The notes beneath the pieces are model-generated. The model made no database searches, was not told the DNA's origin, and was given only the letters and a program-made list of their open reading frames with translations. Below are positions 12,409 through 16,955 of a stretch of DNA of 16,955 nt, one piece after another (position 1 is the first letter of the stretch; each line of letters starts with the position of its first letter). The position numbers and the translations under genes are program-made. Origin of the DNA: Promethearchaeota archaeon (GTDB taxonomy: Archaea; Asgardarchaeota; Hermodarchaeia; Hermodarchaeales; Hermodarchaeaceae); the NCBI GenBank assembly GCA_048939625.1, contig JBHLPH010000033.1, positions 1 through 16,955 on the forward strand, written 5' to 3'.

Positions 12409-12642
12409 CTATTCAATACCACTAAGTTTTCGGATGAGCTGCTTCGCAGCTTCTTCGGGTGGAATTACGGTGACAGTTTCAAGGGTAATTGCCTTGCGAT
12501 TCACTCGATGAAAGGAACCTAAGAGAGAATAAAGGTGTTCTTTGGCTGTCTCTTCACTAACAGCTCGAATTTCTTGAGAAAAGCGATACTCCCGTTTATT
12601 GCGCATATAGGTTCCTTCTAAGCGGTACACTTGTACTGACAT
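12409..12642 (-). CDS. rplX: 50S ribosomal protein eL20 (LX/L18Ae)
   Basis: YRLEG, FSQEIRA and LYSLLGSFHRVNR. Confidence 0.93.
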   Translation of the reverse strand: MSVQVYRLEGTYMRNKREYRFSQEIRAVSEETAKEHLYSLLGSFHRVNRKAITLETVTVIPPEEAAKQLIRKLSGIE

Positions 12643-12691
12643 TCTAACCAGCCTTCTAAAGATATGCAGACAACCATCGAATAGCCAGCGC

Positions 12692-12706
12692 TATTTTAAC
12701 CTTTTT
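12692..12706 (-). promoter_or_regulatory. BRE/TATA-like promoter for eL20-pfdA-ftsY
   Basis: AAAAAGGTTAAAATA about 50 nt upstream of the eL20 ATG. Confidence 0.55.
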
Positions 12707-12709
12707 GCC

Positions 12710-14117
12710 TTGAATAGAATGTCTTTCAAAGAAGATAGTTATCAACCTCCCTCCCATGAACTGAAAAATATTGGTCACCCTTCTATTCTTGCATGAAACC
12801 AATGCTATTAGCAAGGAAAATCCGCATCACACCTACAGCTGAGCAAGCTAATGTGTTATGGGCGTTATCCGAAAAATGTCGACTTCTCTATAACTTCGCT
12901 CTGGCAGAACGTAGACGCCAGTGGGAAACTAATCGAATTAATCCAGTGTCCAAACGTAACTACATAACATATTTCCAACAACAGAACTTCCTACCGGTCC
13001 TCAAGAAGCTGTATCCTGAATATACCTGGGTTTATTCGAAAGTCTTACAAATGACGTTAAAACGTCTCGATGACGACTACAAATCCTTCTTTGCTCGTTG
13101 GAGCTGTGGTGATAAGCAAGCGCGACCTCCAAGCTTCAAAGGTCAAAACTACTTCACAACACTGTGTTACAATCAATCCGGATTCACTCTAGATATAACC
13201 CATAAAACAATTCGTTTTTCCCACCGCCACCCATCCGGTGTTGAATTAAAATTCGCCTTGCCCTGGCTACCACCTGTTAATGGTCAAGTCAAACAAGTTG
13301 AAATATTCCAGGATAGGCAGTGTCGTTGGTTTGTTTCAATCACCATCGAGTATCTGTATCATGAATCTTCTGATAATGGCCAGTACCAAGCAATTGACCT
13401 GGGCATTATAAATTTGGTAACAGCTGTAAATCACAAAGGGAGATTTATTCAAATCCGCAATCGTCGCCCTGACCTCTATTGGAAAGACCAACTTCGAGAA
13501 GTGCAATCCCGTCGTGATCATTGTTTGAAGTACAGCAACAAATGGCATTTCTACCATAGAAAATTATTGAAAATGCAAAGAAAATTAGCAAATCAATTGC
13601 GTGATTTCCAGCATAAAATTTCCAAAGTAGTAGTAACGAATACTCGTGCTCACACATTGATTATCGGCAATCTCGAGATCAAACAAATGGTACGTAAAAA
13701 AAGGCATTCGAGGACTAGTCGGAAAGATAAGGCTAATAGAACTTTGAATTATTCGATGCAAAGCACGGGTTTTCTAGGGAGATTCGCCCAATTCTTGACC
13801 TACAAAGCTCAGAGATTAGGTAAAAGTGTGATAAGAATTGACGAATCGGATACTACGAAGATGTGTTGTGTATGTGGTAAAATGAAGAGACGCTATTTAT
13901 CAGAGCGTGTTATCCAATGCAATTGTGGAAATCCGTTTGATCGAGACCAAAACGCAGCGGTCAACATCATGATACGGTTTCTATTGCAGAAACCCCCTGT
14001 GAACGGGGAGCCATTACAAGCGTTCTTGAATGGCTTGCATCGACATACAGCCCTACCTCAGAACTTGCAGGTAGTGGATTCGATGGAAATACCTGCATAA
14101 ACGCAGGTGTAGTTCAC
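12710..14117 (+). mobile_element. Non-autonomous tnpB-only IS200/IS605-family element (IS1341-like); left end approximate
   Basis: No tnpA. Antisense to and separating eIF6 and eL20, which are normally adjacent. Subterminal hairpin ACCTGC-ATAAAC-GCAGGT followed by GTAGTTCAC is a typical right end. More AT-rich than the flanks by eye. Confidence 0.75.
12793..14100 (+). CDS. tnpB: RNA-guided endonuclease TnpB (IS200/IS605 type) with rearranged RuvC-II
   Basis: N-terminal OrfB-type helix region, RuvC-I AIDLG (D202), IIGNL in place of xEDL (G292), IDESDTT (E351), zinc finger CCVC...CNC and RuvC-III DRDQNAAVNI (D385). Confidence 0.95.
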   Translation: MKPMLLARKIRITPTAEQANVLWALSEKCRLLYNFALAERRRQWETNRINPVSKRNYITYFQQQNFLPVLKKLYPEYTWVYSKVLQMTLKRLDDDYKSFFARWSCGDKQARPPSFKGQNYFTTLCYNQSGFTLDITHKTIRFSHRHPSGVELKFALPWLPPVNGQVKQVEIFQDRQCRWFVSITIEYLYHESSDNGQYQAIDLGIINLVTAVNHKGRFIQIRNRRPDLYWKDQLREVQSRRDHCLKYSNKWHFYHRKLLKMQRKLANQLRDFQHKISKVVVTNTRAHTLIIGNLEIKQMVRKKRHSRTSRKDKANRTLNYSMQSTGFLGRFAQFLTYKAQRLGKSVIRIDESDTTKMCCVCGKMKRRYLSERVIQCNCGNPFDRDQNAAVNIMIRFLLQKPPVNGEPLQAFLNGLHRHTALPQNLQVVDSMEIPA

Positions 14118-14137
14118 CTCTTTCCACCCCCAAAGGG
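13990..14137 (+). ncRNA. TnpB omegaRNA (reRNA) scaffold plus predicted guide
   Basis: Four stems overlap the tnpB 3' end. Loop GTGAAC (13999-14004) is complementary to terminal GTTCAC (14112-14117). Guide predicted from 14118. Outer boundaries approximate. Confidence 0.75.
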
Positions 14138-14141
14138 AACC

Positions 14142-14819
14142 TTAGAAGAAGGCTTCAGTGATACGCATGAGTTCGGGGCCAGTCGTCTCGAATCCTGCTG
14201 CTGCTGCTTTCGAGGTGGCGATTAGTCCGATGGAGATGTAGGGGACGCCGCAGTTGATTGTGCCGATTTCAGCTTCGACTCTGAAAAATGATGCTAACCA
14301 GTCGAGTTCTTCTTCCGTGACATCTGTATGAGCAAGTAGGCCTCGATTGGTTACAACGCAATAAGACCCCACCAAATCTGATTCTGCGATGGTTTTCGCT
14401 TCAACTTCGACTCCGAGTGTATCACGGATACTTTTGATATCTTCCGTAGAGAATTTAGAACTTACAAGCGCAGCCTGGTCATTGGCTAGGATTAGATTCC
14501 CCAGCGCAGTGAGTTTTGAATCCAGTTGGAGTAGAGGAATTTCCAAAGACGTTTGGAGCGCATCCACTTCTTCATTGAGGATGATGTGGGGAACTAACAG
14601 CCCATTTTCATTTCCAGCCGTGAGAATGCCAACGAGTGTGCTTTGACCAATAGTGGTACGAGTAGGTTGCTGTTCGAAAAGGTCCACCAACCCTTTCGTT
14701 GTGGGTTCATTGCTTGGCGCTTGAAGAAGCCAATGATCAGTTGCCCGGCAAAATGCACCGATATTTGAACTGCCATTAAAATCGAAGCGTTGAATTTTGC
14801 CGTTCATCAGGAAAGCCAC
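14142..14819 (-). CDS. eif6: Translation initiation factor 6 (aIF6)
   Basis: NIGAF, ALGNLILAND, VGSYCVVTNRG, GTINCG and TTGPEL. The start may be ATG 14807. Confidence 0.96.
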   Translation of the reverse strand: MAFLMNGKIQRFDFNGSSNIGAFCRATDHWLLQAPSNEPTTKGLVDLFEQQPTRTTIGQSTLVGILTAGNENGLLVPHIILNEEVDALQTSLEIPLLQLDSKLTALGNLILANDQAALVSSKFSTEDIKSIRDTLGVEVEAKTIAESDLVGSYCVVTNRGLLAHTDVTEEELDWLASFFRVEAEIGTINCGVPYISIGLIATSKAAAAGFETTGPELMRITEAFF

Positions 14820-16882: not shown

Positions 16883-16955
16883 TGGTGCGCTGTCCGGGAT
16901 TTGAACCCGGGCACCCAGCGTGGCAGGCTGGAGTCCTAGCCACTAGACCAACAGC
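16883..16955 (-). tRNA. tRNA-Gly(GCC), intronless, CCA encoded; about 2 nt at the 5' end lie beyond the window
   Basis: Reverse complement gives anticodon arm CCAGC-CTGCCAC-GCTGG, T arm CCGGG-TTCAAAT-CCCGG and 3' end ACAGCGC-A-CCA. Confidence 0.97.

Follow-up and report, generated by a model that had tools for sequence, protein, structure and literature searches.

RNA-guided nucleases of the TnpB family in which the RuvC active site is rearranged were described in 2023. One member of the "TnpB2" class (Jiang et al., 2023, Sci Adv; PMC10530073), TvTnpB of Thermoplasma volcanium, is an archaeal nuclease that is active, depends on a TAM, shows no collateral activity, and is associated with an IS605 TnpA. 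In the branches named "RIIr" (Altae-Tran et al., 2023, PNAS; PMC10691335), the RuvC-II glutamate is located on strand 5 instead of strand 4; the glutamate is replaced by a glycine in the largest of these branches, and some of them are confined almost entirely to archaea (PMC10691335). TnpB-only elements are the commonest form of the TnpB family in the same study. Among the Fanzors, the cryo-EM structure of Fanzor2 shows a catalytic triad of D324, E467, and D501 (PMC11832414), and the substitution E467A abolishes its cleavage activity (PMC10530073). Fanzors have been tied to IS607 TnpBs that combine a RuvC-I DPG motif with the alternative glutamate (Yoon et al., 2023, NAR; PMC10711439). The ISDra2 TnpB of Deinococcus radiodurans (structures 8h1j and 8exa) has the canonical glutamate, E278, on strand 4 and is encoded by an autonomous element that also carries a Y1 TnpA.

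Here, we analysed a window of 16,955 nucleotides (the whole stretch of DNA under study) from a host genome of 2.3 Mb, assembled in 83 contigs and 88% complete. We consider it likely that this window contains a 1418-bp non-autonomous insertion of the IS200/IS605 type in an Asgard chromosome, encoding a TnpB of the rearranged (Ealt) class together with its omegaRNA. The genes around it in the window have archaeal housekeeping functions (prefoldin alpha, FtsY, eIF6, S19e, and Rpr2). FtsY shares 96-98% identity with proteins from MAGs that carry the label Thor- or Promethearchaeota, and 87% with proteins under the label Hermodarchaeota; all of these labels are Asgard. The Asgard host, on which the first-pass annotation of this DNA had made part of its reading conditional, was thus confirmed.

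The tnpB open reading frame (P0001; 12793-14100, forward strand) encodes a product of 435 amino acids and is free of stops. Its translation agreed with all the motifs and residues previously listed for it, namely D202 in AIDLG (codon 13396-13398), G292 in IIGNL (13666-13668), E295 (13675-13677), E351 in IDESDTT (13843-13845), and D385 in DRD (13945-13947), whereas the description of the nuclease as compact did not hold, 435 amino acids being an ordinary size for a TnpB. The zinc finger is formed by cysteines 358, 361, 376, and 378 (13864-13926). The database entry for the same protein has 432 amino acids and begins at the second methionine, so that all residue numbers would move by -3 in that numbering. 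The protein gave a full-length match of 211 bits (residues 9-394) to the NCBIfam model guided_TnpB (NF040570), whose curated cut-off is 100 bits, and Pfam recovered all three of the domains expected of a TnpB (HTH_OrfB_IS605, OrfB_IS605, and Cas12f1-like_TNB). The AlphaFold2 model, obtained from an alignment of 125 sequences (mean pLDDT 92.3, pTM 0.85), has a WED/REC/RuvC/ZnF fold. The closest structure recovered by Foldseek was the ISDra2 TnpB 8h1j (TM 0.83 by target), which has the same WED-REC-RuvC-ZnF layout at a structure-based identity of about 20%; the other top matches were Cas12f structures and the mimivirus Fanzor2 9b0l (TM 0.61 by query).

Conservation of the active site was assessed on 110 full-length homologs sharing 55-76% identity. 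The RuvC-I aspartate D202, in the motif DLG, was invariant in all 110 homologs and in the 125-sequence alignment, as were the four cysteines C358, C361, C376, and C378 of the zinc finger. A glycine was present at position 292 in 109 of the 110 homologs and the RuvC-III aspartate D385 was kept in the same number (109/110), while E351 was invariant (110/110). The latter residue lies 59 residues after G292, against about 45-60 in the rearranged class, and six residues separate it from C358.

To place these residues in the superfamily, we built an alignment of 96 proteins, consisting of our protein and 95 diverse representatives. A glutamate was present only at the canonical position (xxxEDL) in 61 of them, in which position 351 was usually a proline (VDPxxTS), and only at position 351 in 34. 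No protein had a glutamate at both positions (0/96), and the only one with a glutamate at neither was the relative P0173, in which the RuvC-I aspartate was lost as well. In the alignments, the canonical motif xxxEDL-x-x-K-x-M paired with IIGNL-E-I-K-Q-M of our protein, such that G292 occupies the position of the canonical RuvC-II glutamate, since canonical TnpBs align the E of xxxEDL there. A single phmmer pairing with ISDra2 TnpB was shifted by one residue. The 96-protein alignment and the alignment to Fanzor2 agree on the position of G292, which settles its register. In a quick ML tree (LG+G4) restricted to prokaryotic or metagenomic proteins, all the proteins with the alternative glutamate (Ealt) were located on one side of a single branch with an SH-aLRT support of 98%, and the distribution of the glutamate can thus be explained by one change of state.

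In the model, D202 is located within strand 198-203 (strand 1), G292 close to the end of strand 288-293 (strand 4), and E351 directly after strand 345-350 (strand 5), while D385 opens helix 384-398. This predicted topology fits the arrangement of rearranged TnpBs, with the glutamate on strand 5 instead of strand 4. When the RuvC half was used as a phmmer query, the best solved relative was Fanzor2 (9b0l_P, E = 5.7e-13); G292 paired with the glycine of ICIGKL, E351 with E467, and D385 with D501 of the mimivirus ApmFanzor2. As judged from this alignment, E351 and D385 are the equivalents of Fanzor2 E467 and D501. The assignment of the protein to the rearranged RuvC-II class (TnpB2, RIIr, or Ealt), with a non-acidic Gly292 and E351 as the alternative glutamate, is supported by these comparisons of sequences. 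The first-pass annotation had proposed this class, had placed G292 at the canonical glutamate position, and had pointed out that Fanzors and a subset of TnpBs use a relocated glutamate. All three statements were borne out, and the chemistry was right but not new, as the class had already been published in 2023.

The limits of the element were determined from the empty sites of congeners and from the end of similarity among eight elements. The gene for ribosomal protein LX (L18Ae; 77-aa ORF, 12409-12642, reverse strand) is the left neighbour and the gene for eIF6 (14142-14819, reverse strand; Pfam eIF-6, E = 7.5e-62) the right one, and the two genes adjoin in all eleven congener loci that we examined. 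The start of the LX gene is 58 nt away from position 12700, which directly follows the predicted TAM. The eIF6 gene is convergent with tnpB, and its stop codon lies 24 nt past the right end. In ten of the eleven congeners the site is free of the element and reads ...TATTTTAA|CTCTTTCC..., the spacer at these uninserted sites having the sequence ...TATTTTAACTCTTTCC... Its length is around 80-90 nt in nine congeners and around 370 nt in one, the sequence of which was unexamined. The empty site, TTTTAA|CTCTTTCC, thus compares with an occupied site in which TTTTAA is followed by the element and then by CTCTTTCC, and the same flanks are found 1418 bp apart in the window. No target-site duplication was seen in this comparison of empty and occupied sites. 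In one congener (G009), the eIF6/LX site is occupied by a deletion derivative, in which a short left end is fused to the omegaRNA.

The eight elements are independent and come from different genomes and contexts. All eight have a TTTAA-like motif, mostly with a C after it, directly before the left end; left-hand similarity begins just past this motif and right-hand similarity stops exactly after GTAGTTCAC. The best reading of these sequences is a predicted TAM, or insertion motif, TTTAA at 12695-12699 (forward strand), directly 5' of the left end, an element at 12700-14117 (forward strand), and a guide from 14118 onwards. This boundary could equally be shifted by 1 nt, in which case the motif would be TTTAAC and the element would span 12701-14118. 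The left end and the 5' untranslated region of tnpB (12700-12792, forward strand) contain blocks conserved among elements (TTTTTG..., TAGTTATC..., and GACTGAAAAA), and folding of 12688-12800 as single-stranded DNA recovered no significant hairpin at the left end (z = 0.44 against shuffles). At the right end, a covarying hairpin is located 8 nt before the terminus. There is no transposase gene inside 12700-14117, tnpB being the sole gene.

Nucleotide conservation at the 3' end of the element begins at about position 13979, and over the last ~140 nt the nucleotides are more conserved than the protein that they encode. An omegaRNA scaffold of ~125 nt is predicted there (13994-14117, forward strand; the terminal ~125-140 nt of the element). 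It consists of nested stem-loops and possibly a pseudoknot, overlaps tnpB codons ~401-435, and ends in GUAGUUCAC, with GTTCAC directly before the guide. The similarity among elements likewise ends exactly after GTTCAC. The fold comprises 36 nested pairs in five helices, with compensatory changes in 26 of the 36 pairs. The cells of the alignment were paired in 94.3% of cases, against about 40% when the partners were slid, and none of 500 shuffles reached the observed values. A pseudoknot between the GUGAAC loop and the terminal GUUCAC was paired in 97.8% of cells; both motifs are nearly invariant and show no covariation, so the pseudoknot is compatible with the alignment and not proven by covariation. 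No Rfam family matched the omegaRNA, the sole Rfam match in the window being a tRNA at its edge. The predicted guide segment (14118-14137, forward strand) lies in the flank past the right end, where similarity stops; its sequence matches the one that follows TTTAA at the empty sites of congeners, and we took ~20 nt as its length after the example of known TnpBs.

Within the Asgard phylum, we found the family in 36 of the 201 genomes searched, with 1-7 copies each at differing places, and in 8 of 14 congeners; the neighbouring genes differed in each of the three loci for which they were read. The empty site in ten of eleven congeners and the differing sites of the family indicate that the element behaves as a transposon and not as a fixed host gene. 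The host genome contains one intact copy and two internally deleted copies that retain the omegaRNA part, besides three distant TnpB matches; two of these could be aligned, and both have the canonical glutamate. No Y1_Tnp or Resolvase (IS607 serine recombinase) match was detected in this 88% complete genome, nor any Y1 TnpA in four other Asgard genomes with close copies, in which Y1_Tnp only was searched. The element may therefore be stranded, there being one intact copy and no transposase found in the genome. The only relative found beside a transposase is P0133 (43% identity), which lies directly behind a Y1_Tnp gene and overlaps it. This places the family in the IS200/IS605 world rather than in that of IS607. 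Some close homologs in other genomes carry premature stops, which shows part of the family to be in decay. In public sequencing runs, the element was found as DNA only. The same right junction was recovered in an independent study, the junction being present in samples of three studies, and no empty-site joint was seen in the contigs of four runs.

Taken as a whole, the proposed mechanism would be the following. The element is inserted 3' of TTTAA, between the genes for eIF6 and ribosomal protein LX. The TnpB would cleave through a catalytic triad made of D202 (strand 1), E351 (end of strand 5), and D385, with Gly292 at the position of the strand-4 glutamate. The omegaRNA scaffold is encoded by the terminal ~125-140 nt, and transcription would run on into the flank to yield the guide. 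The ribonucleoprotein would cut TTTAA-flanked DNA matching the guide, which corresponds to the empty or excised donor site, as has been demonstrated for other TnpBs. A strong collateral cleavage of single-stranded DNA would be absent, as in TvTnpB and the Fanzors.

This reading has to be weighed against others. The protein could be a nuclease-dead RNA-guided DNA binder similar to TldR, G292 being then a true loss and E351 a purely structural residue. The absence of the canonical glutamate, the single intact copy in a genome where no transposase was found, and the presence of the same junction in samples of three studies would all suit such a binder. However, E351 is invariant, excludes the canonical glutamate across the superfamily, and corresponds to E467 of Fanzor2, a residue shown by experiment to be essential; this is difficult to reconcile with a structural role. 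In addition, our protein retains D202, D385, and an intact zinc finger, whereas P0173, in which all three positions are lost, shows what inactivation looks like. The gene is also missing from the site in 10 of 11 congeners, the family is found elsewhere in other genomes, and the guide is simply the flank. The intact catalytic and zinc-binding residues and the covarying omegaRNA thus distinguish this TnpB from TldR. We rejected the dead binder on the conserved residues and mobility and regard it as distinctly improbable; the view of the first-pass annotation that the protein is not a dead TldR is upheld by the conservation of the triad and the zinc finger, the covarying omegaRNA, and the evidence for mobility. 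The same annotation had named E295 as another candidate for the RuvC-II carboxylate, which would make E351 non-catalytic. E295 is indeed located just past strand 288-293, and the pairwise alignment with ISDra2 TnpB brings it within one residue of E278, but its position is occupied by D, N, A, K, or E among the 110 homologs, with E in only five, and aligns with the N of EDLN in canonical TnpBs and the N of GKLN in Fanzor2. The variability of position 295 indicates that E295 is not the catalytic residue. This candidate was rejected on conservation and is, in our opinion, extremely unlikely, E351 being the conserved alternative glutamate.

The possibility that an intact gene persists in a stranded remnant concerns another aspect of the element. 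The nuclease would then have no partner transposase and no present role, and would be drifting to decay. The host genome lacks a Y1_Tnp or Resolvase match and contains two internally deleted copies, the corresponding site of one congener is occupied by a deletion derivative, and homologs elsewhere have stops, all of which would be expected from a remnant. Against this, the present copy has no lesion and its conserved residues and RNA stems are intact; the genome is a draft of 83 contigs at 88% completeness, and repeats and mobile elements often remain unassembled; and an element with tnpB alone has the commonest form of the family (PMC10691335). We consider this scenario unlikely, and it bears in any case on mobility and not on the nature of the active site. 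An active nuclease with a relocated glutamate, distinct from TldR, thus remains our preferred reading and is well supported by comparison of its sequence with those of its relatives.

The comparison with described systems identifies this TnpB as a well-resolved but ordinary new example of the known rearranged class. It has in common with the TnpB2 and RIIr proteins the glycine at the canonical glutamate position, the alternative glutamate on strand 5 just ahead of the zinc finger, the preserved aspartates of RuvC-I and RuvC-III, an archaeal host, and an omegaRNA at the right end. We treat it as a separate sequence family. It shares with TvTnpB a link to Y1 (IS200/IS605), here through the one relative beside a Y1 TnpA, but the predicted TAM is TTTAA instead of NTGAC and there is no tnpA in cis. 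The overlap of the omegaRNA with the 3' end of the gene and the guide derived from the flank are also found in ISDra2 TnpB, which differs by its strand-4 glutamate and by the autonomy of its element. The single copy, the absence of an adjacent transposase, and the loss of the canonical RuvC-II glutamate are shared with TldR and other inactivated TnpBs; in contrast to these, our protein keeps its three functional carboxylates and its zinc finger, the gene lies within a bounded mobile element that is missing from congeners, and the guide corresponds to the element's own flank and not to a host promoter.

The active-site arrangement is the same as in Fanzor2, including a spacing of six residues between the glutamate and the zinc finger, and the omegaRNA may be of the pseudoknot type, whereas the N-terminal half of our protein matched ISDra2-type TnpB in the sequence search. 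Unlike Fanzors, the protein has neither an N-terminal extension nor an NLS. Of the features by which Yoon et al. (2023) define Fanzors and pro-Fanzors, the alternative glutamate (E351) was found here. The RuvC-I motif is DLG instead of the DPG of Fanzors and pro-Fanzors, position 203 being a leucine in 103 of the 110 homologs, with proline not among its five commonest residues. No IS607 association was found either, the element containing no transposase, the 88% complete host genome giving no match to an IS607 serine recombinase, and one relative lying beside a Y1 TnpA. Furthermore, a TAM precedes the insertion, and an analysis not aimed specifically at the dinucleotide crossover reported for IS607 gave no sign of it. 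Finally, the host is an archaeon, and not a eukaryote, a eukaryotic virus, or a cyanobacterium. DPG variants do recur several times inside the alternative-glutamate clade (P0126, P0133, and others), P0133 being linked to Y1. In a scan of viral contigs with the family alignment, the matches with readable motifs (58 of 80 loci) were all canonical-glutamate TnpBs, and a scan with the DPG+Ealt relatives gave no match.

The relevance to Fanzor origins suggested by the first-pass annotation is therefore unsupported, since the signature combining DPG and IS607 is missing and the transposase link is to Y1. We regard it as very unlikely that the Asgard-wide Ealt TnpB family represents an archaeal branch ancestral to at least some Fanzors. 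If this were true, Fanzors would derive from an archaeal ancestor at eukaryogenesis, and not from a transfer of cyanobacterial IS607 elements. In the same, very unlikely reading, the TTTAA motif of the family may double as an archaeal TATA box, which would make these elements promoter-seeking. The element alone says nothing on this question, and the wider clade is where proteins combining DPG and Ealt are found, one of them beside a Y1 transposase.

The locus provides a clean Asgard example of TnpBs with a rearranged active site, for which the ends, the predicted TAM, the omegaRNA scaffold, and the guide are defined. The class is of interest to genome editors because its characterised members, the Fanzors and TvTnpB, lack collateral cleavage of single-stranded DNA.

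The spacer between the genes for eIF6 and ribosomal protein LX, which holds the window's element, was also occupied in the congener G009, where a deletion derivative of about 215 nt (locus L099, 1258-1473) lay at a site identical to that of the window element and consisted of a short left end joined to a complete omegaRNA and right end. The same eIF6-LX site was empty in G003, the closest congener examined. The same-site derivative and the empty site point to one of three histories: the insertion is old and was precisely lost elsewhere, a single site was targeted repeatedly, or there was exchange among strains.

Deleted copies were also present in the window's own genome. Two internally deleted or decayed members of the family, at positions 51540-51969 of contig C12 (loci L002/L004) and 115129-115536 of contig C9 (L003/L008/L009), retained the N-terminal end and the part with the omegaRNA and right end; their RNA stems still pair, and these copies look like MITE-type derivatives of the window's element. 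A fraction of the TnpB family is pseudogenised, because in-frame stops or frameshifts were found in close homologs of 64-72% identity (L014, 3001-4295; L027, 3001-4308; L016; and several copies in genome G005). In-frame TAG codons, which could in principle be read through, were among these stops.

A different combination of features was observed in P0133, a relative with 43% identity encoded on a metagenome contig. This TnpB combines a DPG RuvC-I motif with the alternative Glu, the published "pro-Fanzor" signature, which has been reported for cyanobacterial IS607 elements only (PMC10711439). In contrast to these published pro-Fanzors, P0133 is encoded directly behind a Y1_Tnp gene, with which its own gene overlaps.

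On the left, the window's element is separated from the prefoldin alpha gene by the gene for ribosomal protein LX (L18Ae, 77 aa; 12409-12642, minus strand), a small and readily overlooked gene that was a conserved neighbour of eIF6 at each of the eleven congener loci inspected. On the right (14118-14144), tnpB and the omegaRNA are convergent with eIF6. The eIF6 stop codon is found 24 nt past the element's right end, so that the predicted guide, like any transcript reading through the right end, would be antisense to the final bases and 3' UTR of eIF6. The window ends within a tRNA gene (16886-16955, minus strand; Rfam RF00005, 54.7 bits).

In two independent elements, the TTTAA insertion motif preceded the start of a leftward housekeeping gene by 56-58 nt; the gene is rpLX in the window (12643-12700) and SRP54 at locus L010 (3830-3887). 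For five further elements, a gene start was found 11-145 nt past one element end. Read on the opposite strand, the window's motif is TTAAAATA, which resembles the TATA box of archaea; an A-rich stretch at the position expected for the BRE is contributed by the element's left end. Promoters may be insertion targets of this element family.
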